Shown here piece by piece: positions 6,138-61,309 of a DNA stretch of 64,000 nucleotides. Every line of letters begins with the position of its first letter. Within the stretch, counting starts at the first letter, position 1. The notes below the pieces were generated by a model, which worked only from the letters and a program-made list of their open reading frames with translations, was not told the origin of the DNA and searched no databases. The translations under genes and the position numbers were made by a program. Source of the DNA: Alphaproteobacteria bacterium (GTDB taxonomy: Bacteria; Pseudomonadota; Alphaproteobacteria; Rs-D84); the NCBI GenBank assembly GCA_009784235.1, contig WRCC01000002.1:89687-153686 (forward strand), read 5' to 3'.

Positions 6138-6199
6138 CAATTTGGGATGAAAGATGAATGTTTCATCTTTCGCCCTTTTATTTTTTTACGGGTGAAATT

Positions 6200-7957
6200 A
6201 TGGCCAAAAAATACCTTATATCTTCTGCATTACCTTATGTGAACAATATTCCACATATCGGGAATTTTGTGGGCAGTGTTTTGCCCGCCGATGTATATGC
6301 GCGGTTTATGCGCGCGCGTCATGGTGCGGAAAATGTCTTGTTTGTATGCGGCGCGGACGCGCACGGCACGCCGATTATTGTCAGCGCGAAAAAAGAGAGT
6401 ATGTCGGTCGAAGCATTAGTTGAAAAATACCACGCGATGCATTCCAAGATTTTTAATGATTTCAAAGTTTCTTTTGATGGTGGATATGGTTCGACACATA
6501 CGGAATTGCAGACAAAATTGGTTCATGATTTATTTACTGCGCTGGATAAAAATGGATTTGTCGAAGAAAAGACTACAATTCAGCCATTTTCAATCGATGA
6601 TAATATGTTTTTGGCTGACCGCCAGATAGAAGGTACTTGCCCGAAATGCGGCGACCCGCGTGCACGCGGCGACCAGTGTGATAAATGTGGCGAACTGCTG
6701 GACCCGGCGGATTTGATAAATCCATGTGTTGCGGATACAGGCAGCAAAAACATCGAAATGCGGGAAACAAAAAATCTTTTTTACCGTGCAGATTTGGTCA
6801 AAGATGACGTGAAAAAATGGGTTTTGGATACGGCCGAAAAAAATAAATGGTCACCGTCCGCGATTTCCGCCACGAAAAAGTATTTAACCGAAGATGTGCC
6901 AAATCCGTCGATTACACGCGATTTGCCATGGGGAATTCCGGTGAATAAACCCGGATATGAAAATAAAGTATTTTATGTCTGGTTTGATGCGCCATGGGGC
7001 TATATCTCGATTTCACAAGCAGCGCGACCAATCGCGCCGGAGCAAGGCGAAGGCGGAGAATCGCGCCGTAGCGATAGTGTAGGCGGATGGGCGGATTGGT
7101 GGCATGGCGGTGATAATTGCCATTATGCGCAATTTATGGGCAAAGATAATATAAAGTTTCATTCGCTGTTTTTCCCGGGGCAAGAGATTGCATGGCGGGA
7201 CGGAAATTGGAAAAAAGTCGATTTGTTAAAAGGACTTAATTTCCTGAATTTCGAAGGCGCGAAGATTTCAAAGTCCGCGGGTCACGGAATATTTTTGGAC
7301 GCGGCATTGGTGGATGCGCCGTCGGATGCATGGCGTTATGCTTTGATGGCAAGCGCGCCCGAAAGCGATGATACAGATTTCACAATCCAGCGATTTGCGG
7401 ATATCGTGAACAAAGACCTGAACGGGATGCTGGGCAATTTTGTGTCGCGTGCAACGAAATTGAGCGAGAAAAATTTTGGGAATACAGTTCCCGTAGGGGC
7501 GCATAGTTGCGCCCCAGGGCGCGAATACGCGCCCCTACGGGAATTGGAACAATCAATCAATTTCCGTCTGGCTGAATTAACTGATGCGTTGGAATCTTGC
7601 GAATTTCGTAAATCCGTGAACGCTTTGCGCGAATTATGGGCCGTCGGAAATGAATTTATGGCGAAAATGGAACCGTGGTCTATGGTCAAAAACGGCGATA
7701 TAGATGGTGCGGCGGCGGTTCTGAATGAATGTTTCCAATTGATAGATTTATATGCACGCGTATCTGCGCCGTTCATACCGGATGCAGCGACAAAAATGCA
7801 AAATATATTCGGCACTAAACGCGATTTGTCATGGCCGATTGAATACGAGCGCCGTGTTGAATCCGGCGAATTGTTCACCATTCCGGAAAACCTTTTTGAA
7901 AGAATCGACACCGATAAGGTCGAAAGCATGACCGCGAAATATGTTAAAAAATCATAA
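6200..7957 (+). CDS. metG: Methionyl-tRNA synthetase
   Basis: ISSALPYVNNIPHIGNFVGSVLPADVYARF class-I HIGH region. Zn-binding CPKCG...CDKCG knuckle. Carries an in-frame P-C palindromic insertion at 7493..7538 encoding VGAHSCAPGREYAPLR. Confidence 0.9.
   Translation: MAKKYLISSALPYVNNIPHIGNFVGSVLPADVYARFMRARHGAENVLFVCGADAHGTPIIVSAKKESMSVEALVEKYHAMHSKIFNDFKVSFDGGYGSTHTELQTKLVHDLFTALDKNGFVEEKTTIQPFSIDDNMFLADRQIEGTCPKCGDPRARGDQCDKCGELLDPADLINPCVADTGSKNIEMRETKNLFYRADLVKDDVKKWVLDTAEKNKWSPSAISATKKYLTEDVPNPSITRDLPWGIPVNKPGYENKVFYVWFDAPWGYISISQAARPIAPEQGEGGESRRSDSVGGWADWWHGGDNCHYAQFMGKDNIKFHSLFFPGQEIAWRDGNWKKVDLLKGLNFLNFEGAKISKSAGHGIFLDAALVDAPSDAWRYALMASAPESDDTDFTIQRFADIVNKDLNGMLGNFVSRATKLSEKNFGNTVPVGAHSCAPGREYAPLRELEQSINFRLAELTDALESCEFRKSVNALRELWAVGNEFMAKMEPWSMVKNGDIDGAAAVLNECFQLIDLYARVSAPFIPDAATKMQNIFGTKRDLSWPIEYERRVESGELFTIPENLFERIDTDKVESMTAKYVKKS
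7493..7538. repeat. P-C palindromic element inserted in-frame in metG
   Basis: GTAGGGGCGCATAGTTGCGCCCCAGGGCGCGAATACGCGCCCCTAC with extended flanks ttccc.../...gggaa. Near-identical to the intergenic copy at 5963..6015. Confidence 0.8.
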
Positions 7958-8492
7958 ATCAGAAATCATAAATCAGAAATTAGTTTTAATGTCATGTTGT
8001 GCGCCATGCAGCGCCGGTGCGATTGAGCAATTAAAAGGGCAGGGTGCAGATTTTTGCATCTTGTTTTACAACCCCAATATTTTCCCCGATACCGAATATC
8101 AAAAACGCCTTGCGGAACAAATAAAATTATGCGAATTGCTGGGCGTAAAATATCATGTCGGGGATTACAATCATGACGAATGGTTAAATTGCGTGCGCAG
8201 CATGGAAAATGAACCAGAACGGGGGTTGCGTTGCAGCGAATGTTTCAAAATGCGAATCAAATGGGGCGCGGATTGGGCACGTGCAAATGGATATGATGCA
8301 ATTGCGACCGTATTCGGCGTGTCGAAACATAAAGACCAAGCGCAAGTTGATGCCGCGGCACTTGCCGCTATTTGCGATTTAGAATATATCCCAATCAATA
8401 ACCAACCACCGCTACCCGCCACCAGTCACCAGAAGTTCTATCGCCAAAATTATTGCGGCTGTGAATACTCGATGAAAAAAAACGTGGGATAA
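7941..8492 (+). CDS. queH: Epoxyqueuosine reductase QueH (DUF208)
   Basis: LVLMSCCAPCSAG N-terminal motif. YRQNYCGCEYS at the C-terminus. Start uncertain: 7941 overlaps metG, or 7989. Confidence 0.65.
   Translation: MLKNHKSEIINQKLVLMSCCAPCSAGAIEQLKGQGADFCILFYNPNIFPDTEYQKRLAEQIKLCELLGVKYHVGDYNHDEWLNCVRSMENEPERGLRCSECFKMRIKWGADWARANGYDAIATVFGVSKHKDQAQVDAAALAAICDLEYIPINNQPPLPATSHQKFYRQNYCGCEYSMKKNVG
7949..7983. repeat. Heptamer tandem array H1 (AAATCAK x5) at the metG-queH junction
   Basis: aaatcat aaatcag aaatcat aaatcag aaattag. Contains the metG TAA stop at 7955-7957. Lies within the putative 5' end of the next ORF. Confidence 0.85.
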
Positions 8493-10548: not shown

Positions 10549-10620
10549 GTAGGAAGTTTGAAGGTTGAAGTAGGAAGATTATTAATAATTTCTTCAAGCC
10601 TCAACCTTACTACTTCAAAC
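10547..10620. repeat. Long imperfect inverted repeat with AAGTTTG-like motifs, likely a terminator after fabG
   Basis: GTAGGAAGTTTGAAGGTTGAAGTAGGAAGA...TCTTCAAGCCTCAACCTTACTACTTCAAACTTT. The motif matches heptamer family H4. Confidence 0.5.
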
Positions 10621-10626
10621 TTTATT

Positions 10627-14257: not shown

Positions 14258-14269
14258 AATAAAAAACAG

Positions 14270-14343: not shown

Positions 14344-14442
14344 ACCGTTGGCATAACATAGGGCATTAAACCCTACTTTTCAACTTAAAAATTTCTGGAA
14401 ATTCGTTTTTTATGATATAATATTCAAGCCGAGAGAATTTTC

Positions 14443-15777: not shown

Positions 15778-15778
15778 A

Positions 15779-17077: not shown

Positions 17078-17104
17078 AAAATGCGCCACCCGGCGCATTT
17101 TTTA
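17076..17104. terminator. Bidirectional terminator
   Basis: AAAAAATGCGCCACCCGGCGCATTTTTT. Confidence 0.7.
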
Positions 17105-25921: not shown

Positions 25922-26755
25922 ATGAAGAAATTATTGTGGACTTTTTACTTTTTACTTTTTGCTGTGCCTGCAAATGCAGGTACAGTTGTTGCATCCATAA
26001 ACGGTACGCCGATTACGGATACGGATGTGACCGCGCGCACGCGACTGATGTCTTTCCAAGGGCAATCCGGAACGGATAATCGCCGCCGCGCGCTATCGAA
26101 TATTATCGATGACCATATTAAATTGGCATACGCGGAAAGCATGCGCATTGTCCCAGCGGACAGCGATGTAAAAACTGAATTCGAAGGCATTCAGCGCAGC
26201 GGGTTTGACGCATCAAAATTGACGGCCAGTGATACTGCAATGCTGACCACCGCTGTGCGTGCTAATATCGCGTGGCAAATGGTAATTGGTCGCACAATTA
26301 TGCCAACCATTGATGTTACCGATGAAGACATTGCGACCGAACGCCGTGAATTGGCCCGTGAACGCGGATTGCCGATTGAAATGACATTTATTCGCCTGGT
26401 TGATATACCAACGGATGTTGCATCGCGTCTGACGCGCCCATCATCTTGTGACGGCGCGATGGATATGGCGCGTGATTTGGGTGGCTGGCCACAGCGTATG
26501 ACTGTGCTGCAATACGAATTGTCTGCGGATGTGCGCACCGTTTTGGTTGATTTGGCGCCGATGACTTGGTCGCGCCGGATTGATGGCAATGTATTCTTGG
26601 TATGCAGCACAAAAAGAACCAAAGAATGGGGACAATTGGACGACATTATAAAACAAAACGCGATGTTTCGCCGTGCATCATTCCAAGCAGACCAGCAATT
26701 AAAACAATTGCGCCGCCGCGCAGTAATAGTAATCACTGATGACAGATATAAATAA
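25922..26755 (+). CDS. SurA N-terminal-domain chaperone-like protein (no obvious PPIase domain)
   Basis: Signal peptide. SurA_N-like region (INGTPITDTDV...). Short at 277 aa. Position downstream of lptD. Confidence 0.55.
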   Translation: MKKLLWTFYFLLFAVPANAGTVVASINGTPITDTDVTARTRLMSFQGQSGTDNRRRALSNIIDDHIKLAYAESMRIVPADSDVKTEFEGIQRSGFDASKLTASDTAMLTTAVRANIAWQMVIGRTIMPTIDVTDEDIATERRELARERGLPIEMTFIRLVDIPTDVASRLTRPSSCDGAMDMARDLGGWPQRMTVLQYELSADVRTVLVDLAPMTWSRRIDGNVFLVCSTKRTKEWGQLDDIIKQNAMFRRASFQADQQLKQLRRRAVIVITDDRYK

Positions 26756-33924: not shown

Positions 33925-34086
33925 TTGGTTTTCTCCATATAAAAGTTAATTTTATGCAGAGAAAAATCATTCAATTCTGCGCGAATATTTTGCGCACAAC
34001 AGAATAATCTTTATCCCTGCGAACGCTATTATAGACATTTGAAATCGGATTATCAAGCACAGATGGAAAATTTAATTTTTAACTTT

Positions 34087-34112
34087 TCATTTTTGATTTT
34101 TCATTTATGATA
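34087..34112. repeat. Heptamer array H1 (reverse orientation, ATTTNTG x4) just upstream of rnpA
   Basis: atttttg atttttc atttatg at... Confidence 0.6.
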
Positions 34113-34465: not shown

Positions 34466-36280
34466 AATATTTATAATGCCCGCGGGCGTTATGCCTGGAA
34501 TACGTGATAATGCGGCGATTGTTTCCGGACGCGCGGCCGATAATTTTTCTTTCAGTTCATTGGTCAATCCGGACATTGCAGCATAATCAAAACCCATCGG
34601 AATTTTAATATCTTTATCGCGGTTATATCGTTCAATTTCACGTTGCGCCCGCGCAATATATCCAGCGTAAAATCTATCATTTTGATTTATGATTTCGGCC
34701 TTTTCAGCGATATTTTTTTCATAATGTTCGCCTGTAATCAATCCGGCTGCAACCGCCATTGGTCCCAGGCGCGTGATTGCATTATCCGCGCGCAGGCTCA
34801 ATCGGTATTCCGCGCGGGATGTGAACATTCGATAAGGTTCATCTACGCCCAGCGTCGTAATATCATCGATTAGTACACCGATATATGAATTGGTTCGGTC
34901 GATTTGTAGGGGTGCGCACCCACCCATTGAAATCGCAGATTTCAATGGGACCCGGGATTCGCGCCCCAGGGCGCAAGTATGCGCCCCTACAAAAGCCGCG
35001 GCGTTCGCACCCGCGACGATACCTTGGGCTGCGGCTTCTTCGTACCCCGATGTACCATTAATTTGCCCAGCGAAAAATAATCCCGGAATGTCTTTGGATT
35101 CCAATGTTGACTTTAACACACGCGCATCAATCGCATCGTATTCGATTGCATATCCATATCGTTCGATACGGGCGTTTTCCAGGCTTGGAACACTGCGAAT
35201 AAATTTATCTTGGACTGCCGCGGACATACTGGTCGATAAACCATTTGGATAAATTAATTTGCCATTTGCTGTCTCTGGCTCCAAAAATATTTGGTGTGAA
35301 CTGTGTTCTGGGAATCGCATAACTTTGTCTTCCAAGGATGGGCAATACCGCGGCCCGGTACCAACAATTTCACCGTTATACATCGGCGCGTCGGTAATAG
35401 TATCGCGAATAATTTGGTGCGTTTCAGATGTAGTGCGGGTGATATAGCAATTGGTCGGTCCAAAGTTTGGGTAAACCACCCCGCCCTTTGGGCATCCCTC
35501 CAAAGGGGGGGAACTAAACCACGGATGATTCGTATCCCCTGGCTGTGCCTCGCACACCGAAAAGTCAATACTGTCCGCATAAATACGCGCGGGTGTTCCG
35601 GTTTTCAGACGTAATAATTTGAATCCGGCGCGTTCAAGCGTCGCGGAAATATTTTTATCGGCCGTCTGATATGTGCCGTCGTCTTGCAATCGGCCAGATT
35701 CGATTTTTTCGCATCCGCGATGGACCAAACCCCGCAAAAAAGTCCCGGTCGTAATAACAATTGCCGTCGCACGATATTTTCCGTTTATGATTTTGTTTTC
35801 GATATCCAAAGTTTCGACGGATTCATAAATTATTTCGGGATAGACTATATCTCCCCCTCCTTGAGGGGGGCCGTCTGCGAAGCAGATCGGGGGGAGCTCC
35901 CCCTCGTCGCCCTTTGGGCGACACTCCCCCTCAAGGAGGGGGAGATATAGTCCGAGCAGATTTTTCACTGCATCCCGATACTTATCCCGATCGATTTGTG
36001 CGCGTAATGCCTGGGTCGCGGGGCCGTGCGAAGCATTTAAAACACGGAAATGAATACCGGCCATATCGGCGGCACGCGGCATTATTCCGCCCAAGGCGCC
36101 CAATTCCGCAACCAATTGCGATTTTCCAGGCCCACCAATCGATGGATTGCAAGACAGCGCGCCCAAATCATCCGGCGATTTGGTCAAAAGCAGGGTGGCC
36201 GCACCCATACGTGCTGCTGCCGCGGCTGCTTCGACCCCGGCATGTCCGCCGCCAATAACAATTACATCAAATTCTTTCAT
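34433..36280 (-). CDS. mnmG: tRNA uridine-5-carboxymethylaminomethyl synthesis enzyme MnmG (GidA)
   Basis: MKEFDVIVIGGGHAGVEAAAAAARMG FAD motif. GPRYCPSLEDKVMRF. Carries three in-frame palindromic-element insertions (P-C, P-A partial, P-B). Confidence 0.9.
   Translation of the reverse strand: MKEFDVIVIGGGHAGVEAAAAAARMGAATLLLTKSPDDLGALSCNPSIGGPGKSQLVAELGALGGIMPRAADMAGIHFRVLNASHGPATQALRAQIDRDKYRDAVKNLLGLYLPLLEGECRPKGDEGELPPICFADGPPQGGGDIVYPEIIYESVETLDIENKIINGKYRATAIVITTGTFLRGLVHRGCEKIESGRLQDDGTYQTADKNISATLERAGFKLLRLKTGTPARIYADSIDFSVCEAQPGDTNHPWFSSPPLEGCPKGGVVYPNFGPTNCYITRTTSETHQIIRDTITDAPMYNGEIVGTGPRYCPSLEDKVMRFPEHSSHQIFLEPETANGKLIYPNGLSTSMSAAVQDKFIRSVPSLENARIERYGYAIEYDAIDARVLKSTLESKDIPGLFFAGQINGTSGYEEAAAQGIVAGANAAAFVGAHTCALGRESRVPLKSAISMGGCAPLQIDRTNSYIGVLIDDITTLGVDEPYRMFTSRAEYRLSLRADNAITRLGPMAVAAGLITGEHYEKNIAEKAEIINQNDRFYAGYIARAQREIERYNRDKDIKIPMGFDYAAMSGLTNELKEKLSAARPETIAALSRIPGITPAGIINILRRVRRTNNG
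34925..34990. repeat. P-C palindromic element (variant) inserted in-frame in mnmG
   Basis: CCCATTGAAATCGCAGATTTCAATGGG + GCGCCCCAGGGCGCAAGTATGCGCCCCTAC. Encodes VGAHTCALGRESRVPLKSAISMGGCAP, compared with VGAHSCAPGREYAPLR in metG. Confidence 0.75.
35471..35514. repeat. P-A palindromic element (partial) inserted in-frame in mnmG
   Basis: GTAAACCACCCCGCCCTTTGGGCATCCCTCCAAAGGGGGGGAAC. Encodes SSPPLEGCPKGGVVY in the FS...CYIT loop. Confidence 0.75.
35846..35950. repeat. P-B palindromic element (105 bp) inserted in-frame in mnmG
   Basis: TATATCTCCCCCTCCTTGAGGGGG...CGTCGCCCTTTGGGCGAC...CCCCCTCAAGGAGGGGGAGATATA. Encodes ~35 extra residues (LPLLEGECRPKGDEGELPPICFADGPPQGGGDI). Confidence 0.8.
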
Positions 36281-36443: not shown

Positions 36444-39400
36444 ATGAAATACCCAGAAACAAAACCAAAGGCAAATTTTCCGGAAATGGAACACCAGATT
36501 TTAAAATTCTGGCGTGACCATGATATTTTCCACAAATCTTTGGATGCAACGGCGAACGGCGCGCCGTTCACTTTCTATGATGGTCCGCCATTTGGAAATG
36601 GGTTGCCGCATTGGGGGCATTTGGGTGTTTCGGCCGTCAAAGACATGGTTCATCGTTATCAAACAATGCGCGGTCGTCACGTGGAACGCGAATTGGGTTG
36701 GGATTGTCATGGGTTGCCGGCGGAAAATTCAGTTGAAAAAGCACAAAATCGCAAATCCAAGGATATCGTTGAATCCGATGGCATGGCGGCGTTCTGTGAG
36801 ATGTGTCGCGTTGATGTGCAAACGTACGTCAAAGAATGGGAACGCTTTATTGAACGCATGGGTCGTTGGGTGGATATTGGTGATGATTTGGGATACCGCA
36901 CAATGGATAAAAATTATATGGAATCCATGCTGTGGACCATCAAGGAATTGCGTAACAAAGGTTTGCTGTACAAAGATTATCGCGTGAATCCGTTCGATTG
37001 GGTAAATGGCACGGTGCTGAGCAATTCCGAAGCATCCAGCGATTACCGAGAAGTGATTGATGACGCGATAACAGTCTGGTTTGAATTGATGGATGGTCGT
37101 CGCATTTTGGCATGGACAACAACGCCGTGGACTTTGCCGGGAAATTCAGCATTGGCTGTAAATCCGAAATTAACGTATGCCGTGATGCGCGATAGCGATG
37201 GTGCGGAATATATCATCGCAGAATCACGTTTGGGGAATTACGAAAAACAATTGGCGAATGCCGAACGTGTCGGCACGGTTATGGGCGCGGATTTGGTTGG
37301 TTTAAAATATAAACCGCTGTTTGATTATTATAACGATGCAAAATTGCATAACATTATCGCGGGCGGATTTGTGTCGGACGATTCGGGTACCGGTATCGTT
37401 CATATCGCGCCGGCGTTCGGTGAAGACGATTTCTGGGCGCTGAAAGACAATGACCCAGAATTTCCAGTAATTGTTAATGTTGATAATTATGGAAATTTTG
37501 ATGCGACTGTGCGTGATTTTTCGGGTGAAAATATTTTTGCCGCAAATCCAAAAATTATTGCTAACTTGAAAGAACGCGGGCACCTGGTTAAAAAAGAACA
37601 ATACAAGCACGCATATCCGTATGGCGACCGCAGTAAAGAAAAATTAATCTATCGCGCGACGGAATCCTGGTACATCAATGTTCCGAAAATTAAAGACAAA
37701 TTATTAATAAATAATGAATTGGTTACATGGACATCGGCCGGCGAACGTTTCCGCGCTTGGATTGAAAACGCGCGGCCTTGGTCGATTTCGCGCAATCGTT
37801 TCTGGGGCGTGCCATTGCCAATTTGGGCGCGCGGCGATGAATATAAAATATTTGGTTCAATCGCTGAATTGCAGGAATTTTTTGGCGTTGAAATTCACGA
37901 CCTGCATCGGCCGACGATGGATGCTTTGACCAAAGACGGCTGGACGCGTATTCCAGATGTTCTGGATTGCTGGGTCGAGTCCGGTTCAATGCCGTGGGCG
38001 TCGCTGCATTATCCGTTTGACCCATCATCGCACAGTGATTTCGATGCTGAATTACCAAAAAACTTTCCGGCAGATTATATTATCGAAGGCCAAGACCAAA
38101 CCCGTGGATGGTTTTATTCGCTGATGGTCCTTGCGACCGCATTGTTCGATAAACCCGCGTTCATAACCGTGTCTGCGAACGGCATGGTTGTTGATGAACA
38201 CAAGAAAAAGTTTTCAAAATCCGTTGGCAATTATGTAAACCCAGAACAACAGATTGAACAGTTCGGCGCGGATGCGATTCGCTTGTTTATACTGGGTTCC
38301 AATTTTATGAAAGCCGAACCAGTTCCAATGGATAAAGAAGGCAAAGTGTTTGGTGAGCCAACAAAAAATATCCTGGTGCCGCTGTGGAATGCTTATCATT
38401 TCTTTACGCTTTACGCCAACGCCGGCGCGGTAACCGCGCAGGAGACAGTAGACAGTAGACAGTCAGAAAATGTTCTGGATAAATACATATTGGCCGAACT
38501 TAACGACTTGACTGGCGTGGTGCGTGGTGCGCTGGATGAATATAAACCGGACGCTGCGCTGCGCGGCATGACGTCGTTCTTGGAAATCTTAAATAATTGG
38601 TATATCCGTCGTTCGCGGGAGCGTTTCTGGAACGAAGAACAATCCGCGTTCGACACACTGCATTTCGTGTTGGTCAAATTCACAAAATTACTGGCACCAT
38701 TTGCACCATTTGTAAGTGACCATATTTTCAGAAACTTAACGGACCCGGAAAATAAAAAAATGGATACTTCCGTGCATCTTGAAAAATTCCCGGAAAATGA
38801 ATCACATGCATTTGACAGCAAGGAATCATTCATTCTGGATACAATGCGATATATTCAGCAAATTGTTTCAGTTGGAAAACAGCTGCGTGAAAAACATGCA
38901 CTAAGAAACAGGTTGCCGTTAAATAATATTTCAATTTATGGCACATCGATAAATCTTGGCGATTATGCACTGGATATAATCAAAGGCGAATTGAATGTAA
39001 AAAATGCTGAAAATAAAACTACTGGTCTGGAAAACGTTGCTGATTCGTTTGTATATCTTATCACGCCGAAAATCGGTGCGCGGTTGGGTGCAGGCTTAAA
39101 AGAAATCATGACTGCATCAAAACAGCCAGGATTTGACCCGGTGGCACATGGATTGTTGCCCGATGAATACGAAATGCGCCTGACCGTAAAACCCGGAATC
39201 ACCGGGGCGGCGCTGCCGGATAATACCGCGGTGGTTGTTTTGGATACAAATGTGACACCGGAATTATTGGCGACAGGATTGGCCAACGATGCACTTCGTT
39301 TTATCCAAGATACGCGCAAAGCAATGGACTTGGATGTTTCCGACCGGATAACTTTGACCGTGTCGGGCGATATGGAATTGTTGACCGCGCTGGATACACA

Positions 39401-39515: not shown

Positions 39516-40240
39516 AGTTAACACCAAATATTTACTTCACCAAAGTTCCGCCGGCGCTGGATATGTCTATCCGGTCGGAATTGTATTATACCAACGAATT
39601 TACCTTCGCGGTGGCGGTGATTTTGTCGGCGCAAGCCACCGATAAAAAAGTCAACGAAGTCACGCCGGCGTTATTCGAAATTGCCGACACACCGGAAAAA
39701 ATGTTTGCGCTGGGCATCGACGGCCTACGCGAACATATCAAAGTAATTTCGTTTTTTAATAACAAAGCGAAAAATATTATTGGGTCGAGCAAGATGCTTG
39801 TCTCCCCCTCCTTGAGGGGGAGTGTCGCCCAAAGGGCGACGAGGGGGAGCTCCCCCCAGTCGGCTATGCCGACAGCCCCCCTCAAAAAGGGGGGCACAGG
39901 AGAATGGTTCTTCCCTACCAAATACCACAACCGCGATGAATTGTTGAAACTGCCGGGCATTGGCCAAAAGACTGCAAATGTTATTATGAATGTTTTATGG
40001 GGTGCGCCGCTGATTGGCGTTGATACTCATGTTTATCGTAACGCGCATCGATATGGGTGGGTTGCGGAATCCGATAATACGCCGGAAAAAGTCGAAGTGA
40101 AATTATTACAAATTATTCCAAAGAAATATCACGGAATTGTGAATCACGTTATGGTCTTGCACGGGCGGTATATTTGCAAAGCGCTGCGTCCGTTGTGTGA
40201 CCAATGTCCCGTTGCGAAATATTGCCCTGTCCGGAAGTAA
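39512..40240 (+). CDS. nth: Endonuclease III (Nth) with in-frame P-B insertion
   Basis: HhH-GPD motifs LPGIGQKTANVIMNV. Fe-S cluster C-x6-C-x2-C-x5-C (CKALRPLCDQCPVAKYC). ~32 aa insertion before the HhH. Confidence 0.85.
   Translation: MKLTPNIYFTKVPPALDMSIRSELYYTNEFTFAVAVILSAQATDKKVNEVTPALFEIADTPEKMFALGIDGLREHIKVISFFNNKAKNIIGSSKMLVSPSLRGSVAQRATRGSSPQSAMPTAPLKKGGTGEWFFPTKYHNRDELLKLPGIGQKTANVIMNVLWGAPLIGVDTHVYRNAHRYGWVAESDNTPEKVEVKLLQIIPKKYHGIVNHVMVLHGRYICKALRPLCDQCPVAKYCPVRK
39801..39896. repeat. P-B palindromic element (96 bp) inserted in-frame in nth
   Basis: TCTCCCCCTCCTTGAGGGGGAGTGTCGCCCAAAGGGCGACGAGGGGGAGCTCCCC... The first 57 bp are identical to the reverse complement of the mnmG copy. 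Confidence 0.8.
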
Positions 40241-40242
40241 AA

Positions 40243-40393
40243 CTGTCATTGCGAGGAACATAGTGACGAAGCAATCCAATAAATAATATACTTGTTCATT
40301 ATAATGGACATCACATCTATGTTTTAAAGTTGTCTGCTATAGTAGACAACTTTTTAAATTACTGGATTGCTTCGCATGCGCTCGCAATGACAG
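40243..40393. mobile_element. MITE-like element (family P-D)
   Basis: ~35 bp terminal inverted repeats CTGTCATTGCGAGGAACATAGTGACGAAGCAATCCA / TGGATTGCTTCGCATGCGCTCGCAATGACAG flank an AT-rich 85 bp core. The core contains palindrome AAGTTGTCTGCTATAGTAGACAACTT. No coding capacity. Confidence 0.6.
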
Positions 40394-40396
40394 CTA

Positions 40397-41626
40397 TTAT
40401 TCATATCTCAGCGAATCAATCGGATTCAACCGCGCGGCTTTCAGTGCCGGAAACACACCCGATGCAATACCAACGACCACGGCGACGATTACGGATAGTA
40501 TTACCGCATATATACTTATCGGTGCGGTATAATTCAATAACATTGGCACGAATATTTTTGATAATACAATGCCCAGTACCATGCCGAACATACTGCCCAT
40601 AAATGAAATCAAAACCGATTCGGACAAGAATTGAACAATTATGTGTTTTTCTTTGGCGCCGATGGCTTTCCTGATTCCGATTTCGCGTGTGCGTTCTGCG
40701 ACCGACACCAGCATCATATTCATAATCCCAATTGACCCAACCAACAGCGATACTGACGCAATCGACACCAACAACATCCGCATAAATCCGGCGATGGTGT
40801 TCATTGTTTCCATAACCTGGCGCATGTCCATAATCTGAAAATCATCTGGTTCATCATCACGCAATCTGTGACGTTCGCGCAGTATCGTCGTAATCTGTTC
40901 AGTTACCAAATGATTGTCCGCGTCCGGAAATAATCGCAGCATAATCATTTGGACCGCGTCCGGAAAACGTCCACCCCATATACGTTTGGTCAGCGTGGTC
41001 AGCGGGATAATAAGCATATCATCTTGGGAACCCATCATAGAATCGCCGCGTTCGCGCAGCATGCCAATAATAACAAACGGTACGTTGTTAACACGTACGG
41101 TTTGTCCGACTGGATTTTCCGGCAAATCAAGTTCGGCGGCAGTCTTTGGCCCGATTACAGCAAACGTTGATGCATTGCGAAGCGCGCTTTGGTCGAAAAA
41201 AGTACCGTATTCCATTTCAACATTTTGCACTGTTGCCCAATCTGGATGTGTTCCGATAACCTGGGTTGTCCAGTTGCGGTTACCGAACACGGCCTGGGTT
41301 GAAATTTGACGCACTGGTGCGACCGCGTTAACATCAGGCAAACGGCCCAGCACGGCCGCAGATTGCACGGTAAGGGTTTGACGCATGCCGGTGCGAATGC
41401 CACCGGTTTGCGCCGCGCCTGCGCGAACGATAATTGTATTAGTGCCCAGCGAAGAAAACTGGTCATCGATTTGTTTCTGAACCGTTTCGCCAAGTGTCAC
41501 CATGACCACAACGGCCATAACACCAATAATAATGCCCAGAATTGTTAATATGGAACGAACTTTGTTGCCGGAAATCGACAACCATGATTCTTTGAGTATA
41601 TCGTTGAATGTCATTGCTCTCTCCAT
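40397..41626 (-). CDS. ABC transporter permease (MacB/FtsX family, standalone permease)
   Basis: N-terminal TM. Large periplasmic domain. Three C-terminal TMs (FtsX). The start codon lies inside an H1 heptamer array. Confidence 0.75.
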   Translation of the reverse strand: MERAMTFNDILKESWLSISGNKVRSILTILGIIIGVMAVVVMVTLGETVQKQIDDQFSSLGTNTIIVRAGAAQTGGIRTGMRQTLTVQSAAVLGRLPDVNAVAPVRQISTQAVFGNRNWTTQVIGTHPDWATVQNVEMEYGTFFDQSALRNASTFAVIGPKTAAELDLPENPVGQTVRVNNVPFVIIGMLRERGDSMMGSQDDMLIIPLTTLTKRIWGGRFPDAVQMIMLRLFPDADNHLVTEQITTILRERHRLRDDEPDDFQIMDMRQVMETMNTIAGFMRMLLVSIASVSLLVGSIGIMNMMLVSVAERTREIGIRKAIGAKEKHIIVQFLSESVLISFMGSMFGMVLGIVLSKIFVPMLLNYTAPISIYAVILSVIVAVVVGIASGVFPALKAARLNPIDSLRYE

Positions 41627-41708
41627 TTATGATTTCTGATTTATGATTTATGGTTGCATAGGCTGATACAGCGTCAAACCAAATCATAAATCAGAAATCA
41701 GAAATCTT
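41625..41708. repeat. Inverted pair of H1 heptamer arrays at a same-strand gene junction
   Basis: atttatg atttctg atttatg atttatg (41625-41652), 27 bp near-palindromic spacer, then aaatcat aaatcag aaatcag aaatctt (41681-41708). Contains the permease ATG and the thioesterase stop. Confidence 0.85.
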
Positions 41709-42428
41709 CTCCCACTCACAAATCATCACTGCATTTATTTCTTCATTTGATTTTATAATATGCCGACTGGTTGCGCCATCTAATTTTGATTCGACTGTAA
41801 CCGCAGGCACACCGGCCGGGATTTCTTTTTTGAAATTTATGGAAAGGCCGCGTAATTTATGTGCATTGCGGAATTCAAAGCCCAGCGCTTCGGTCGCCCA
41901 GACGGCATAAACCGCGTTATTAATATGCTGATTCAAATCGATATCATCAAAACGTAGCAGTGCGGCCATTGAAACATCTGCATCAAAATCTGGAAATTTA
42001 TCAAATGTCCGGTCCAATGCGCGTTCGGAAATTATGCCCCATCCGGACATAATATCGTCCAGGCGCAACGGCCGCCGTGCCGCCGCATCGATAAGAATCC
42101 ATTGCGATGTGGCGCGTACCAATTCGCGGCCCGTGGCGACATCCGTAATACGAAAATCGCGTATTGCGCGCACCGCGTCACGTCCCGATGGCCATGTGGA
42201 TATTTCGATTTCTTGGCCTTCGCCCGGCATTTCATTTATTTCAATCAGGTAATGCGTAACAACCCATGCGCAATTTTTATCCATGCAATATGTGCGTCCG
42301 CGGTCTAAATCTTCGGCATGAGTATCTGCGACTGCTTGCAATTCATTCATCAGCATAATCGGCCGCAGCAGTCCATGCCGGTCCATCTGATAAGTTTTTG
42401 GTTTGCGAATTTCAATATGCTTGTGCAT
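41691..42428 (-). CDS. Acyl-ACP thioesterase (double hotdog)
   Basis: PF01643-like pattern (DIDLNQHINNAVYAVWATE). TAATG overlap with the valS stop. Confidence 0.65.
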   Translation of the reverse strand: MHKHIEIRKPKTYQMDRHGLLRPIMLMNELQAVADTHAEDLDRGRTYCMDKNCAWVVTHYLIEINEMPGEGQEIEISTWPSGRDAVRAIRDFRITDVATGRELVRATSQWILIDAAARRPLRLDDIMSGWGIISERALDRTFDKFPDFDADVSMAALLRFDDIDLNQHINNAVYAVWATEALGFEFRNAHKLRGLSINFKKEIPAGVPAVTVESKLDGATSRHIIKSNEEINAVMICEWEKISDF

Positions 42429-48347: not shown

Positions 48348-48352
48348 GAATT

Positions 48353-48445
48353 ACTATTCACTGGATTGCTTCGCGTACGCTCGCAATGACAAAAATAGTG
48401 TTGTCATTGCGAGGAGTGAAACGACGAAGCAATCCAGTGAATAGT
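48353..48445. repeat. P-D palindromic element (arms abutted)
   Basis: ACTATTCACTGGATTGCTTCGCGTACGCTCGCAATGACA...TGTCATTGCGAGGAGTGAAACGACGAAGCAATCCAGTGAATAGT. Same arms as the MITE-like element at 40243..40393 but with no core. Confidence 0.7.
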
Positions 48446-48472
48446 AAAAAACCGCCGATTGGCGGTTTTTAT
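48446..48472. terminator. Bidirectional terminator
   Basis: AAAAAACCGCCGATTGGCGGTTTTT. Confidence 0.7.
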
Positions 48473-49185
48473 TATATTGTCATCCCGTTGGTGACATAAA
48501 GAGTTCCATCGTCCGACCAGATTTTGCCACCCGATTCGTTTACAATCAATTCCCCGGCGGCCAATTCGGCATAATCCAATGGTTCGGACACAAATGCATC
48601 GAATTTTCCAGATGCAACCCATGCCAAATCCAGGGCGGGGCAGCCAGTAACACGAAAGTTTGAAGTTTGAAGTTTGAAGTTTGAAGTTTGGGAGTTCAAC
48701 CCAACCATCAAATCACGAGTTTCAACTTTTTCTTTGGATACATGAATTCTGGTTGAATGGAATGCATTGAAAATAAATGCACCATGCCCCAGTTCCGCAT
48801 AATACAAGCGGTCTTCAATCGGTGCATAAATCAGTGCGATTTTGGTTTCATCGTTTTGGCGCAGCGCCAACGATATCGCAAAATGTGGATTTCCGCGCAC
48901 GAAATTCGCAGCACCGGACAATGACAAAACAAATTCCGAAATCCCGCCGCCATCACGCGATACGTTCGGTGTCAAAATGCCGGCAGTCGGCCGCACCAGC
49001 GACAAATCGGATAGAATCATTTCTTCGATTCGCGTTTGTGCTTTATTTACAAAATCGGTCGCGGATTTTAATGATTGTTGCAGATTTTCAACTTCGGAAA
49101 AATCACGACGCAAACCAGTCGCAGTCCGCTGCAACGCAGCGAACATCTGGTTTAATTCCGAAGAGCCCTTGATTACATTTTCCAT
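48472..49185 (-). CDS. suhB: Inositol monophosphatase (SuhB) homologue lacking catalytic acidic residues
   Basis: IMPase fold motifs AAGELIVNESGG and DLAWVASGKFDAF retained. Metal-binding EE and DPxDGT replaced (PNVSRDGGGISE; LSLSGAANF). AAGTTTG heptamer array at 48656..48683 in frame. Confidence 0.65.
   Translation of the reverse strand: MENVIKGSSELNQMFAALQRTATGLRRDFSEVENLQQSLKSATDFVNKAQTRIEEMILSDLSLVRPTAGILTPNVSRDGGGISEFVLSLSGAANFVRGNPHFAISLALRQNDETKIALIYAPIEDRLYYAELGHGAFIFNAFHSTRIHVSKEKVETRDLMVGLNSQTSNFKLQTSNFRVTGCPALDLAWVASGKFDAFVSEPLDYAELAAGELIVNESGGKIWSDDGTLYVTNGMTI
48656..48683. repeat. Heptamer array H4 (AAGTTTG x4) in-frame in suhB
   Basis: aagtttg aagtttg aagtttg aagtttg, then degenerate ggagttc. 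Encodes the duplicated peptide QTSNFKLQTSNFR. Confidence 0.85.
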
Positions 49186-53279: not shown

Positions 53280-55382
53280 TTAAAATATTCCACCAACAAC
53301 CGCGTTATCAATTGGCATACCATCGGCATCAATGATTCCGGTGCGAACGGGTTCGTTCGGGCGCTGGCCGCTTTTGAATGCTTCCATAATAATTGTGCCG
53401 TCTGGGTCTTGGGATGCGGCGACGCCGCTCGCACGATTAACACGTATTAAATCAATTCCATCCGGCACGGAAAACGGCCGATTTGCTTCGCCTGCCAATG
53501 CCGCCGTCATAAAGTCACCAAATACGCGTGCGGCCATATATGAACCTGCGCCGCCGCCCATTGGTTTTGGTGTGTCGTATCCCATCCAGACACCAGCGAC
53601 CAAGTCTTTGGAAAATCCGACGAACCATACGTCTTTGACTTCATTTGTTGTGCCTGTTTTACCGGCGATTGTTTGGCCCGGGACGCGTGCTTGTCGGCCG
53701 GTTCCCATTTCCACCGCGCCTTGTAATATCGATACGATTTGATACAAGGACTGTGGGTCGGACAGCGGTTCGCCTGCTTCGCGTCGCGCTGGTGGATTCA
53801 AGGTTTCTGACCAATCAATATTCGAATTTCGAATTTCGAATTTCGAATTTCGGTTATCGATAACACGTCCATGGCGGTCCTGGACATAGTCAACCAGTTT
53901 CGGTCGATTGGTATGCCCGCCATTAACAAACGCAGCAAAGCCCAGCGTCAGGCGCGACAAAGTCGTTTCGCCAGAGCCAAGTGCCAATGATAAATTCATA
54001 TGCCGCATATCTTCATCATATACGCCAAACCGCTGCGCGGAACGAATTGCATTGCGTACACCGATGGATTCAACCAATCGCACAGTCGGCACGTTGCGTG
54101 ATGTTTCCAAAGAATATCGCAGCGGGATAAGTCCCATAAATTTCCGGTCGTAATTTTCCGGTTTCCACAGCGTGTTGTCTTCACGCCATCCGACAATCGG
54201 CGCATCCAACAGCAATGTTTGCGGCGTATATTTATTTGTTTCCAGCGCGGCCAGATATACAAACGGTTTGATGGTTGAACCAACCTGGCGATTTGCTTGC
54301 GTTGCGCGGTTAAACGAACTTTCTGCAAAAGAATATCCACCGGACATGGCCAATACGCGCCCGGTGTGTGGATTCATTACAATTATCGCGCCTTGCAACC
54401 GTTCCGTACGGCCGCGGTTATACGCATCCAGCGCGGTTTTAAGCGCATTCGCCGCTGCACGTTGATATTCCGGAACGATAGTGGTTTTTATGTATAACCC
54501 TTCGTTATATAATTTTTCACGGCCCAATGTATGCAGTAATTCGCGACGAACTTCTTCGGCGAAATATTGAAAATCGTCTGTCATCTGCGCCATAAATCCG
54601 CTGTTGATGTTTAATTCTTCGGCTTGGGCCATCAGCATTTCATCGCGCGAAATAAATCCTTCTTCCATCATGCGGCGCAGCACGTAATCGCGGCGGAATA
54701 CCGCGCGCGAACGGTCATTTGGTGCTTTTGGCAATGATGCCAGGAATGCAGCTTCGGACAGTGTCAATTCACCGACGGGCTTGTTAAAATACATCAAAGA
54801 CGCCGAACCAACGCCGTACGAACGTGCGCCCAAGAATATCTGGTTCAGATACAGTGTCATTATATGTTGTTTTGAAAAAGAGCGTTCCAGGCGCAGCGCC
54901 AGGATGGCTTCCTTTATCTTGCGTGATAATTTGCGTTCAGACGTTAAAAAGAAATTCTTTGCAACTTGCTGTGTAATCGTGGATGCACCGGTAAATCGTG
55001 CGCCCAAACCCAATGCATGCCGTGCATTATTCAATGTCGCGCGCGTAATGCCGAATATATCAATGCCTGGATGACGCCAGAAGTTTTTATCTTCGGCTGC
55101 GATAAATGCATTAATCAGCATTGGTGGCATATCTTCGAAATCGATAAATACGCGACGTTCTTCGGCATATTCAATCAATAATGAACCATCCGCCGCATAC
55201 AGGCGCGTTGCAACCGGCGGCGCGTATGTCGCCAATTGCCGGTAATCCGGCAAATCATTGCCGTATCGCATAACCAATAATGCAGTCGCGGCAATACCGA
55301 TAACAACCGCCCAAAACAGGCCCAGCATTATCCATTTGGCAAATTTGCGTAATTTTTGAAAAAAGGAAGTTGATGATTTCAC
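53280..55382 (-). CDS. mrcA: Penicillin-binding protein 1A (bifunctional transglycosylase/transpeptidase)
   Basis: GT51 motifs (RFTGASTITQQVAKNFFL; RKIKEAIL). Transpeptidase STIKPF and KTGTTN. Probable GTG start at 55382. H2 heptamer array at 53821..53855 in frame. Confidence 0.85.
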   Translation of the reverse strand: MKSSTSFFQKLRKFAKWIMLGLFWAVVIGIAATALLVMRYGNDLPDYRQLATYAPPVATRLYAADGSLLIEYAEERRVFIDFEDMPPMLINAFIAAEDKNFWRHPGIDIFGITRATLNNARHALGLGARFTGASTITQQVAKNFFLTSERKLSRKIKEAILALRLERSFSKQHIMTLYLNQIFLGARSYGVGSASLMYFNKPVGELTLSEAAFLASLPKAPNDRSRAVFRRDYVLRRMMEEGFISRDEMLMAQAEELNINSGFMAQMTDDFQYFAEEVRRELLHTLGREKLYNEGLYIKTTIVPEYQRAAANALKTALDAYNRGRTERLQGAIIVMNPHTGRVLAMSGGYSFAESSFNRATQANRQVGSTIKPFVYLAALETNKYTPQTLLLDAPIVGWREDNTLWKPENYDRKFMGLIPLRYSLETSRNVPTVRLVESIGVRNAIRSAQRFGVYDEDMRHMNLSLALGSGETTLSRLTLGFAAFVNGGHTNRPKLVDYVQDRHGRVIDNRNSKFEIRNSNIDWSETLNPPARREAGEPLSDPQSLYQIVSILQGAVEMGTGRQARVPGQTIAGKTGTTNEVKDVWFVGFSKDLVAGVWMGYDTPKPMGGGAGSYMAARVFGDFMTAALAGEANRPFSVPDGIDLIRVNRASGVAASQDPDGTIIMEAFKSGQRPNEPVRTGIIDADGMPIDNAVVGGIF
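53821..53855. repeat. Heptamer array H2 (TTCGAAT x5, reverse complement of the UDG copy) in-frame in mrcA
   Basis: ttcgaat ttcgaat ttcgaat ttcgaat ttcggtt. Encodes NRNSKFEIRNSNID. Confidence 0.85.
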
Positions 55383-59822: not shown

Positions 59823-59857
59823 AAATCAGAAATCACAAACCCAAAATCATAAATCTA
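59823..59857. repeat. Heptamer array H1 at the rluD 3' end
   Basis: aaatcag aaatcac aaaccca aaatcat aaatcta. Contains the rluD TGA stop. Confidence 0.7.
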
Positions 59858-60842
59858 GGATTTCTTTCAGTTCCAGCATATCGTCGGGCAGCTTTGATTT
59901 AAATTTCATTTTTTCACCGGTAATCGGGTGCGATAATTCCAGTAATTCTGCATGCAGCATCTGCATATTATGCGTTTTTATGAATTCCAATAATTCTGGG
60001 TTTTTGACACTGCCGAACCTGGTGCTGCCGCGGCCGTATGTCGGGTCGCACAATACCGGAAATCCGTGCGCGGACAAATGCACGCGAATCTGATGCGTAC
60101 GCCCTGTGCCCAGCGTGCACCGGAATTCAGAAACACCGTTTCGCGACCAAGCATTTAAAACAACGACCGATGTGTGTGCTTCCTTGCCGCCGACCTTGAC
60201 CATTGTCATTTTTTGGCGGTTGTGTGTGCTGCGCCCGATATTGCCTGAAATATCCGCGGATTCCCAATTCGGAACGCCCCAAACAAATGCAACATATTTC
60301 CGCACCAAATCATGCGCGGCGAATGTTTTTACCAATTCGCGATACGCCGCGTCGGTTTTTGCCAAGATGACAACGCCGGATGTACCCTTGTCCAACCTGT
60401 GCACAACGCCTGGACGTGTATCGCCGCCAATATCGGCCAATGTGGTATGCGTTAAAACAGCGTGAACCAAAGTATCTGTTTCATTGCCTGCACCTGGATA
60501 CATTGCAATCCCGCGTGGTTTGTTCACGACGATGATGTCATTGTCTTCGAATAAAATTTCCAGGTCGGTATTCGGTAGACAGTAGTCAGTAGACAGTAGA
60601 GATTTATCTTGTTTTACAGGAATCGCAACCGAAAATTCATCACCGGGTTTTATTTTTTCCGACAATTTTACTGTTAACTGTCTACTGTCTACTGTCGGCT
60701 TTTTTATTTCAAATTTCTGAATTTCTGTGCGGGAAAAATCCGGCATTTGTACGGCAAGAAATTTATCCAGTCGCATTCCGGTATCATCTTCGGTAACGAT
60801 AAAATTTCTTATTTCGGCGGCCATTGTGTTATCTTGTTCCAA
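59847..60842 (-). CDS. rluD: 23S rRNA pseudouridine synthase RluD (RluA family with S4 domain)
   Basis: S4 domain (MRLDKFLA). Catalytic HRLDKGTSGVVILAKT. Two inverted GACAGTA heptamer arrays inside the coding sequence (60575..60602, 60668..60695). Confidence 0.8.
   Translation of the reverse strand: MEQDNTMAAEIRNFIVTEDDTGMRLDKFLAVQMPDFSRTEIQKFEIKKPTVDSRQLTVKLSEKIKPGDEFSVAIPVKQDKSLLSTDYCLPNTDLEILFEDNDIIVVNKPRGIAMYPGAGNETDTLVHAVLTHTTLADIGGDTRPGVVHRLDKGTSGVVILAKTDAAYRELVKTFAAHDLVRKYVAFVWGVPNWESADISGNIGRSTHNRQKMTMVKVGGKEAHTSVVVLNAWSRNGVSEFRCTLGTGRTHQIRVHLSAHGFPVLCDPTYGRGSTRFGSVKNPELLEFIKTHNMQMLHAELLELSHPITGEKMKFKSKLPDDMLELKEILDL
60575..60695. repeat. Inverted pair of H3 heptamer arrays inside rluD
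   Basis: gtagaca gtagtca gtagaca gtagaga (60575-60602) and ttactgt taactgt ctactgt ctactgt (60668-60695), ~65 bp apart. Encode KSLLSTDYCLP and PTVDSRQLTVK. Confidence 0.8.
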
Positions 60843-61309
60843 TCATCACCATGTTCGCAATTTTCCAGACGAACAATCAATCTGCCGGACATTTGTTCAA
60901 CATCGCAAGTCATTATTCCGCGTGTACGTGCTTGGGTTGCACGACTGTCTGCTTCGCGCCATGCCAATACCAATTGTGTCGGTGGCAGCAGACATGTGAC
61001 ACTCATCCGTGCATCGCGGTTTTCGAAAAATCTTTCCGTTGGGCCGACCCAAATACGGACATTTTCGGTCTGGCCATAACATGGAAATCCGTCCAAGTAA
61101 TATATTTCTGTACCAATGCTGCTGGTGCGTCGTTCCGACCCAAACCAAATATCATATGGCGCCAGACGTAATCCGGTGACGGCTTCCCAATCTGAACTGG
61201 TCGAAAATATAGACGCAATTGGACCGCAAACGGGCGGCGGCGGTGTCGCGGCATTTGCCACAGCAAAAAGTAAAAAGTAAAAGGTAAAAAGTAAATAAGT
61301 TTTCTTCAT
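60809..61309 (-). CDS. Hypothetical secreted protein
   Basis: Signal peptide MKKTYLLFTFYFLLFAVANA. Its hydrophobic region is encoded by an AAAAAGT heptamer array (61265..61299). Confidence 0.4.
   Translation of the reverse strand: MKKTYLLFTFYFLLFAVANAATPPPPVCGPIASIFSTSSDWEAVTGLRLAPYDIWFGSERRTSSIGTEIYYLDGFPCYGQTENVRIWVGPTERFFENRDARMSVTCLLPPTQLVLAWREADSRATQARTRGIMTCDVEQMSGRLIVRLENCEHGDDWNKITQWPPK
61265..61299. repeat. Heptamer array H5 (AAAAAGT x5) encoding a signal-peptide hydrophobic region
   Basis: aaaaagt aaaaagt aaaaggt aaaaagt aaataag. Confidence 0.8.

Follow-up and report, generated by a model that had tools for sequence, protein, structure and literature searches.

Tandem heptanucleotides of the form AAATCAK (family H1) lie at several gene ends in a 64-kb stretch of the genome of an uncultured termite-gut alphaproteobacterium (contig WRCC01000002.1 of GCA_009784235.1, positions 89,687–153,686; this whole stretch is referred to here as the window), and at 41625–41708 two such arrays face each other between the genes for an acyl-ACP thioesterase and a MacB/FtsX permease. 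What are these arrays, and do they act on the junctions where they lie? The first-pass annotation had seen in them possible phase-variable junctions, translational-coupling modules or terminator-like structures. To us the heptamer arrays look like tolerated simple repeats that sometimes form hairpins, and not like dedicated junction switches. We think it probable that AAATCAK is one of several families in a population of heptanucleotide tandem repeats that extends over the genome, is prone to slippage, is copied between loci and is kept where it is harmless. This population is best read as belonging with the heptamers described in cyanobacteria (short tandemly repeated repetitive sequences, STRR), Beggiatoaceae, Xanthomonas and Geobacter.

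AAATCAK arrays in the window

The arrays proved to be real, non-random and recurrent as a family. Two-unit matches (AAATCAKAAATCAK, at most one mismatch) occur 11 times in the window against 0.29 expected, and none of 100 shuffled sequences reached 11. Tandem Repeats Finder (TRF) reported period-7 arrays at 7949–7980, 41625–41652, 41681–41706 and 59823–59855, with 3.7–4.7 units each. Four junctions had been proposed as carriers of H1, of which metG/queH, thioesterase/permease and rluD stood. The site upstream of rnpA turned out to be a degenerate array of TTTNATT type in the divergent pnp/rnpA intergenic (promoter) region and is at best a weak, loose relative of H1, while a further copy, translated within gidA, had been overlooked. 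With the rnpA-upstream site counted on these terms, the window holds five H1 sites (Table 1). The gene identities (metG, queH, rnpA, MacB/FtsX permease, acyl-ACP thioesterase and RluD-type synthase) were all confirmed by Pfam.

Arrays had also been said to overlap both stop and start codons. The stops of metG (7955–7957), the thioesterase (41691–41693) and rluD (59847–59849) do lie inside arrays, but the queH start lies 8 nt upstream of its array and the permease start lies beyond the array. An alternative permease start at ATG 41626 was rejected, since gene calls and the Shine-Dalgarno sequence beyond the array place the start at 41614. The stops follow from the unit itself: as 7 and 3 are coprime, any unit with TAA, TAG or TGA closes every frame within three units, which accounts by logic and in simulation for the stop codons seen inside gene-end arrays. 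All three frames of a heptamer array are one cyclic heptapeptide, and translated arrays of stop-bearing units therefore carry a substitution in every third unit, such as the G of AAATCAG in queH or the change of TAG to GAG or GGG in the related genome L140 described below.

At 41625–41708 the right-coordinate arm is the 5′ arm on the sense (−) strand, (MUGAUUU)n, and carries the thioesterase stop TGA together with the last codons (...EWEKISDF*). The left-coordinate arm is the 3′ arm on that strand, (AAAUCAK)n; 1 nt separates its end from the permease Shine-Dalgarno sequence, which is outside the predicted stem. The 25-nt arms are 96% complementary, and the predicted fold of −36.2 kcal/mol (z = −4.5) bears out the inverted pair as a hairpin. 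Significant folds were confined to inverted pairs (also z = −4.4 at 60575–60696, −4.85 at 10553–10622 and −3.85 at 5283–5364); no hairpins were found at the single arrays at 7949–7983, 34071–34111 (z = −1.07) and 59823–59857 (z = −0.56), where z was about −0.6 to −1.1. The idea of a terminator-like structure did not hold. The H1 stem is AU-rich and lacks a U-tract, being followed by AUAAAUGGAGAGAG, and a terminator scan of 41600–41720 found none; canonical terminators with a GC stem and a T-run were found elsewhere in the window and also beside such pairs in relatives. Rfam returned only sub-threshold matches to miRNA-precursor-like hairpins at 41625–41708 (best 33.8 bits against a gathering score of 90) and only tRNAs over the whole window. 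The purine-rich flanks of the pair were considered as a target-site duplication and rejected, being conserved EWEK codons on one side and the permease Shine-Dalgarno sequence on the other.

The metG/queH junction bears on how an array may grow. The queH start was placed at 7941 on account of the homologue N-termini, which read MLKN(N), and of the metG-queH overlaps in three relatives, which are 14 nt long and read ATGTTAAAAAATAA. From there the array encodes about QueH residues 4–14, NHKSEIINQK(L); TRF describes it as period 14 with 2.3 copies and 100% match. Compared with L139 (AAT AAT GAA TCA AAA ATT), the window has one additional AAATCATAAATCAG and one compensating A, +15 nt in total. On this alignment, it seems that 14 nt of an existing sequence resembling AAT-AATGAATCAAAAATT were duplicated and that a 1-nt insertion compensated for the shift; the comparison would speak for growth in place by slippage, after which the reading frame was restored.

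Heptamer families inside genes and in other genomes

Is H1 alone in this genome, and is it confined to junctions? A strict scan of periods 4–12 gave arrays for period 7 only (8 observed, 0 in 30 dinucleotide shuffles), and with TRF at low threshold 30 of 72 rows had period 7. At least six heptamer unit families are present in the 64 kb. The proposed specificity for junctions was lost, since the same type of array is frequent in coding sequences, in signal peptides and in the 16S rRNA gene of a related contig.

In-frame arrays were found in suhB, ileS, a PBP1A-like gene, a family-4 UDG gene and rluD (48656–48690; 38402–38531; 53821–53852; 4730–4764; 5069–5104; 60575–60696). CAGTAGA arrays encode portions of the RluD S4 domain and of IleRS, and TTCGAAW arrays lie within the PBP1A and UDG genes. 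The rluD pair flanks conserved S4-domain coding sequence. In SuhB the QTSNFKLQTSNF segment occupies a helix/loop position where homologues carry an unrelated segment of similar length, and the protein is not lengthened. Arrays also encode the hydrophobic cores of four signal peptides (3108–3134, 23897–23925, 25940–25960 and 61265–61300), belonging to a lipoprotein (MRKILLSTVCCLLLAAC), an open reading frame (ORF) after lptG that is probably LptD, judging from gene order only, a SurA-like ORF and a 166-aa ORF. Examples are MRKI-LLSTVCCLL-LAAC and MKKLLW-TFYFLLF-AVPANA, and the TFYFLLF core, derived from ACTTTTT, is common to the signal peptides of two different proteins. Array-coded cores occur likewise in the relatives L002, L017 and L018. 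The arrays stop spurious ORFs on both strands.

Table 1. Heptamer arrays of the window and the genes and signals next to them (window coordinates).
Feature	Position	Strand	Remarks
metG, methionyl-tRNA synthetase	6158..7957	+	Pfam tRNA-synt_1g, 2.4e-123; stop in first H1 unit
queH, 183 aa	7941..8492	+	Pfam QueH; 17-nt overlap with metG
H1 array, 5 units AAATCAT AAATCAG AAATCAT AAATCAG AAATTAG	7949..7983	+	pattern scan, TRF
Degenerate T-rich heptamer array TTTAATT TTTAACT TTTCATT TTTGATT TTTCATT TATGAT	34071..34111	+	TRF; TTTNATT type
H1 copy in gidA/mnmG, translated in frame EIINQ	34675..34695	-	pattern scan; absent from the first-pass annotation
MacB/FtsX permease, 405 aa, start ATG 41614	40397..41614	-	Pfam; gene calls in contigs L012/L014/L015
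Shine-Dalgarno sequence GGAGAGAG of MacB/FtsX permease	41616..41623	-	sequence
Inverted pair, left-coordinate arm, + strand ATTTATG ATTTCTG ATTTATG ATTTATG	41625..41652	-	sequence, TRF
Spacer/loop, 28 nt, GTTGCATAGGCTGATACAGCGTCAAACC	41653..41680	.	GGTT/AACC lengthens stem; small inner GCUG/CAGC hairpin
Inverted pair, right-coordinate arm AAATCAT AAATCAG AAATCAG AAATCTT	41681..41708	+	sequence, TRF
Acyl-ACP thioesterase, 245 aa as annotated	41691..42428	-	Pfam; database protein 100% identical
Degenerate H1 array AAATCAG AAATCAC AAACCCA AAATCAT AAATCTA	59823..59857	+	sense (-) strand reads as MTGATTT-type units
CAGTAGA family	3108, 38439, 60575, 60669		TRF; 4 sites
TTCGAAW family	4730, 53821		TRF; 2 sites
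AAGTTTG family	10553, 48656		TRF; 2 sites
AAAAAGT family	25940, 61265		TRF; 2 sites
AAGTTTG x5, perfect, in suhB/IMPase	48656..48690	-	encodes QTSNFKLQTSNF
Inverted pair CAGTAGA / TCTACTG in rluD	60575..60696	-	arms translated PTVDSRQLTVK ... SLLSTDYCLP
Inverted pair, GAAGTTT family	10553..10622	+	fills gap from fabG-like stop (10548) to likely yidD-like start

The closest species-level genomes are termite-gut metagenome-assembled genomes (MAGs) of Alphaproteobacteria/Rickettsiales, with 58–60% thioesterase identity; metagenomic homologues reach 69–75%. Four relatives (L001, L002, L018 and L140) have period-7 arrays with units other than AAATCAK, and no period-7 arrays were found in 20 kb of the more distant rumen and Enterousia relatives. 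Directly after the thioesterase stop, L018 carries (AATTAAG)5 ... (CTTAATT)4 followed by a terminator, and L002 carries (AATTAGC)4/(GCTAATT)4 between two terminators, while L017 and L001 have no element at this junction. Variant units are mirrored between the two arms of pairs. Two elements in L002, which lie in opposite orientation, have their arms in common and spacers that are 73% identical, which indicates that whole array-spacer-array units are copied.

In the related Rickettsiales MAG L140, four CAATTAG arrays fall within 1.5 kb (2104–2136, 2405–2437, 2951–2984 and 3507–3538), two in metG and one each in queH and fabD. The peptide is QLAISN(E/G) in all four, the recurring TAG having been mutated, and in FabD the array stands in place of native sequence of equal length. 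In L078 (termite contig JGI20166J26741_11462915), a bacterial 16S rRNA gene at 970–1665 has insertions of 132 and 141 nt in the tips of two helices, at model positions ~82 and ~188; each insertion is an inverted pair of heptamer arrays, and further pairs, including one of H1 (AAATCAG), lie upstream of the gene.

The unit itself is also found beyond this lineage. A metagenome scan for three AAATCAK units gave at least 120 contigs from many habitats and phyla and of varied G+C. Among the matches listed, many human-gut contigs have (ATGATTT)n, a short spacer and (AAATCAT)n that together take up the whole stop-to-start interval between two cistrons. Contigs L024 and L065 were assigned to Parabacteroides merdae by exact protein matches, and in P. 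merdae H1 pairs occupy an acyltransferase-acyltransferase junction (L024/L096/L128/L054) and the rsmA-mgtE junction (L065/L121). At one P. merdae locus, strains with ~99% identical flanks differ in the arm next to the start codon, which has 7, 6, 6 and 4 units. AATTGAC/GTCAATT pairs also occur near the H1 pairs of P. merdae.

A conserved spacer was not found across the H1 pairs compared in general. A 13-nt spacer, ATYRYCGAYGCAT, is common to H1 pairs at unrelated loci (L026, L048/L035, L076 and L113), which suggests that the pairs with ATYRYCGAYGCAT form a discrete dispersed sub-family of array-spacer-array elements. Counted over all families, inverted pairs are distributed 32:7:8 among co-directional, convergent and divergent gaps. 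This is about the usual mix of gene arrangements, a general expectation and not a computed baseline, and a preference for same-strand junctions was rejected on that ground.

How the arrays may spread, and rival explanations

Arrays would gain and lose 7-nt steps by replication slippage, for which the duplication in the queH array and the 7/6/6/4 units of P. merdae are indirect evidence. Units, and whole array-spacer-array palindromes, would also be copied to new loci, with the two arms kept as mirror copies; the recurrence of one unit at many loci, the mirrored variant units and the L002 copies that have arms and spacer in common all point to such a copying step. The copying might be the work of template switching, gene conversion or a trans-acting transposase. 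Selection would then retain arrays only where they are harmless, i.e., in short intercistronic gaps, last codons, signal-peptide cores, protein loops or linkers and the tips of rRNA helices. An array that lands at the end of a gene would automatically carry a stop, and changes in copy number would there mostly alter the C-terminal tail. At 41625–41708, the thioesterase stop and the permease Shine-Dalgarno sequence could have an AU-rich hairpin of ~25 bp between them, formed by the transcript or by the DNA. This is most likely a passive intercistronic stem-loop, presumably neither terminator nor switch, whose length would in principle allow cleavage by RNase III. Translational coupling or RNA processing by the predicted hairpin is possible.

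One could go further and regard the array palindromes, (unit)n-spacer-(reverse-complement unit)n, as an undescribed class of non-autonomous mobile elements copied by a trans-acting enzyme that crosses phyla, an idea that we find doubtful. If it were true, it would explain AAATCAT pairs in both a termite-gut alphaproteobacterium and P. merdae. The process would overwrite coding sequence, making signal-peptide cores and loops, and would extend rRNA helices, and junction hairpins like the one at 41625–41708 would be its commonest footprint.

Several points weigh against a slippage-prone, copied and tolerated population. Simple slippage alone fails to account for one unit at many loci or in different phyla, and the copying step is deduced from patterns of recurrence. 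No transposase family was detected among 20 window ORFs scanned against Pfam, a non-exhaustive set of mostly array-flanking, small or unannotated ORFs. The SuhB array and the FabD array of L140 replace native sequence at unchanged length, which slippage or insertion explains poorly. The neutrality of the elements lacks direct evidence, and two patterns could reflect selection for an RNA function. An inverted heptamer pair directly follows the thioesterase stop in three of the five genomes examined, and the polarity of H1 pairs is nearly fixed, (ATGATTT)n-spacer-(AAATCAT)n making up 43 of 49 (43 vs 6, redundancy not removed, among the matches listed). The comparison of copy number, finally, was made on consensus assemblies, in which low-frequency variants would not show.

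The alternative that survives best, though we judge it unlikely, takes the inverted pairs as selected RNA modules of polycistronic mRNAs, long hairpins whose 5′ arm holds the upstream stop and whose 3′ arm has the downstream ribosome-binding region at its base. They would act by translational coupling, in which ribosomes have to open the stem before the downstream gene is translated, or through RNase III cleavage that uncouples the stabilities of the two cistrons. The significant hairpin at 41625–41708 fits this, and both in the window and at the P. merdae loci the stop lies in the 5′ arm and a Shine-Dalgarno sequence or start 0–10 nt past the 3′ arm. The polarity of H1 pairs places the A-rich, AUG-free arm next to the start; in three lineages a pair, built of a different unit in each, stands at the 3′ end of the thioesterase gene; and heptamer repeats in a 5′ untranslated region of Haemophilus influenzae act via RNA structure and RNase III (PMC12721329). 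Yet convergent and divergent gaps hold pairs at about their usual proportions (on the general expectation given above), and pairs are also found around conserved codons in rluD and in 16S rRNA, where coupling would be meaningless. The permease Shine-Dalgarno sequence is outside the predicted stem, at three of the five H1 sites there is just a single array without structure, and L017 and L001 lack any element at the thioesterase junction. Selection had also seemed to follow from P. merdae groups B and C, in which 100% identical elements sit in flanks of 86–92% identity. This was rejected, as the identity comes in fully identical blocks of at least 700 bp, i.e., mosaic recombination, and the conservation of the elements amid diverged flanks is only apparent. 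Nor did a polarity that places stops in the entry arm hold up: stops tend to lie there (40 of 54 entry against 25 of 54 exit arms), but the 11 vs 5 discordant pairs are not significant, nor are the pairs independent.

Less probable still is that the arrays are DNA or RNA binding sites of a sequence-specific protein and part of a global regulatory or nucleoid-organising network, as put forward for G. metallireducens and for the TAACTGA repeats of Beggiatoaceae. The recurrence of one unit (AAATCAK) at many loci and in distant phyla would agree with this, as would the fixed polarity of the pairs, and by eye TTTMTGA resembles MTYCTGA of Geobacter and TAACTGA of Beggiatoa in its CTGA/TGA core (PMC2700814, PMC4679880). 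However, at least six unrelated units in 64 kb, and other units in relatives, would require many binding proteins with fast turnover. The arrays also lie in housekeeping ORFs and signal peptides, the flanking genes have no functional theme, and no candidate binding protein was found.

Could the arrays instead be contingency loci, in which slippage switches genes such as queH (via 7949–7983) or varies protein termini? As the first-pass annotation expected, copy-number changes could shift a stop: in simulations, ±1 or ±2 units at 7949–7983 shifted the frame and cut QueH to 7–30 aa, and +3 units kept the frame. Copy number does vary in P. merdae (7/6/6/4), and heptanucleotide phase variation is known at the hmw promoters of H. 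influenzae (PMC8262952, PMC12721329). In the window, however, arrays have only 4–5 units, and simulated unit changes at the thioesterase end altered the C-terminal tail by none to a few residues and at the rluD end (59823–59857) lengthened it by up to 24 residues, so that queH alone would be switchable. The genes concerned serve housekeeping (tRNA modification, fatty-acid and transport functions) and are neither surface nor restriction genes. A 498-kb ENA contig matches the window exactly, and the same sequence is present in a JGI termite-gut metagenome. The ten contigs compared, five independent ones over 31691–52428 and five over 1–18492, are ENA, JGI and Logan assemblies of at least six samples and were 99.93–100% identical to the window, with a few single-nucleotide polymorphisms, no indel inside any covered array and, across the samples of this organism, no change of copy number at consensus level. 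The sole indel was a 1-nt deletion in the permease Shine-Dalgarno sequence adjoining the array (GGAGAGAG to GAGAGAG; contig L016 at ~3193, window 41623), perhaps a true variant, perhaps an error due to low coverage. The 183-aa queH protein is identical in five assemblies, and its 90% cluster has one member sequence only. Contingency loci are thus very improbable here, and phase variation and dedicated coupling are both unsupported. An assembly or binning artefact, with collapsed, expanded or chimeric repeats, is next to impossible: metagenome assembly can garble short tandem repeats, but three pipelines (ENA/MEGAHIT-style, JGI and Logan) gave identical contigs from at least six samples, the arrays of 21–35 bp are shorter than a read, and in-frame arrays leave long conserved ORFs open.

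Known heptamer repeats and other palindromes

Perfect tandem 7-bp repeats at operon junctions had been taken for an undescribed feature. An excess of heptanucleotide tandem repeats, including same-strand intergenic pairs, is in fact published (PMC4679880, PMC4692102, PMC2700814). As summarised in later papers, no class of long simple repeats is more abundant in many prokaryotes than heptanucleotides, for which an origin by polymerase slippage was proposed (Mrazek 2007, via PMC4679880, PMC4692102). Examples given there are cyanobacterial STRR, GGGAATC of Xanthomonas (including inverted pairs), GGGGA(T/C)T of Nostoc and TAACTGA of Beggiatoaceae (PMC4679880, PMC4692102). No paper on such arrays in termite-gut Alphaproteobacteria or Parabacteroides came up in the collection of papers searched.

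The arrays of the window are head-to-tail copies, within the 5–11-nt range of simple sequence repeats, and longer than expected by chance. They have in common with the long heptanucleotide repeats of prokaryotes, so far as those summaries describe them, tandem 7-nt units in two to six or more copies and an over-represented period. In the surveys as summarised, the repeats are mostly intergenic, some form inverted pairs and their length differs between close strains. Unlike the units described there, those of the window are AT-rich and cannot form G-quadruplexes, and the host is an uncultured termite-gut alphaproteobacterium. Many arrays of the window are translated in frame, whereas in the summarised surveys units with a length that is a multiple of three dominate inside genes.

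With STRR of Calothrix and Anabaena the window shares several heptamer families per genome (at least six here), which are dispersed, often within operons and capable of forming stem-loops. STRR1–3, with the units CCCCAGT, TTGGTCA and CAACAGT, belong to heterocystous cyanobacteria. The unit sequences and the phylum thus differ from those of the window, where insertions in coding and rRNA genes are also prominent.

G. metallireducens has eight pairs of MTYCTGA x5 (class 3), e.g., in the proB-proA gap, as well as GGACCGG x4 elements within and between genes (PMC2700814). About five tandem heptamers, inverted pairs and same-strand junctions are features of description shared with the window (PMC2700814); the G. 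metallireducens sites were read as putative binding sites of a global regulator or of IHF/HU and lie in a high-GC genome. For TAACTGA of marine Beggiatoaceae, also present in some Cyanobacteria and Bacteroidetes, a role in translation has been suggested (PMC4679880). Like AAATCAK, this heptamer contains TAA and TGA, occurs in 2–6 copies directly before starts or after stops and is patchy across phyla. The unit is different; in the BOGUAY genome, 169 sets are direct and only one repeat is indirect (PMC4679880), in contrast to the many inverted pairs seen here. TAACTGA runs forward just upstream of starts; among our arrays only those of queH and P. merdae abut a start codon.

REPINs, inverted doublets of repetitive extragenic palindromes (REPs) mobilised by RAYT (Y1) transposases, resemble our pairs in their ~25-nt inverted arms with a spacer, long hairpin, dispersed intergenic location and genome-specific families (PMC3116915, PMC3337134), and whole elements appear to be copied in both, as with the two in L002. 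The arms of our pairs are tandem heptamers, which do not fold as single arrays, and not imperfect palindromes with a conserved 5′ motif like REPs, the pairs are also found inside genes instead of being strictly extragenic, and no RAYT was present in the 20 window ORFs scanned with Pfam.

If the arrays are tolerated repeats, then array-borne stops and N-termini (thioesterase, RluD, MetG/QueH) and odd heptad-like peptides in annotations would be repeat-derived, and neither errors nor new domains. This uncultured gut lineage, with its coexisting families, unit turnover between relatives, whole-unit copying, in-frame translation and 16S insertions, would be an unusually dense and tractable case of the long-noted, unexplained excess of 7-nt repeats in bacteria. 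Since the AAATCAT unit also occurs in the culturable P. merdae with copy-number polymorphism, the questions why seven, and what spreads the arrays, become testable.

Rickettsia palindromic elements are likewise small selfish repeats of Alphaproteobacteria that lie in frame in housekeeping and RNA genes and are tolerated (PMC1779305, PMC10969869). They are unique-sequence palindromes of ~100–150 bp, whereas the elements described here are simple tandem repeats. Palindromes without heptamer arms were also seen in the window. A family of ~100 bp, with arms containing CTCCCCCTCCTTGAGGGGG, is present in gidA (35843–35952), in an HhH-GPD glycosylase gene (39799–39898) and in an intergenic region (3444–3567). 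Both ORFs are intact, which is reminiscent of the Rickettsia elements, and the copies at 35853–35945 and 39801–39893 are 90% identical in inverted orientation. L002 has a similar CCCCTTCCC...GGGAAGGGG element. A third palindrome family (TAGGGGCGCATA..TGCGCCC / GGGCGCG..CGCCCCTA) has one copy just upstream of tRNA-Val (5964–6014) and the other in metG (7485–7546), between the catalytic and the anticodon-binding domains; MetG of the window has 599 aa, that of relatives 560–567 aa. A fourth inverted-repeat family, with CGAAGCAATCC... arms, occurs in two intergenic regions, at 40267–40374 (also 40234–40402) and 48351–48447.

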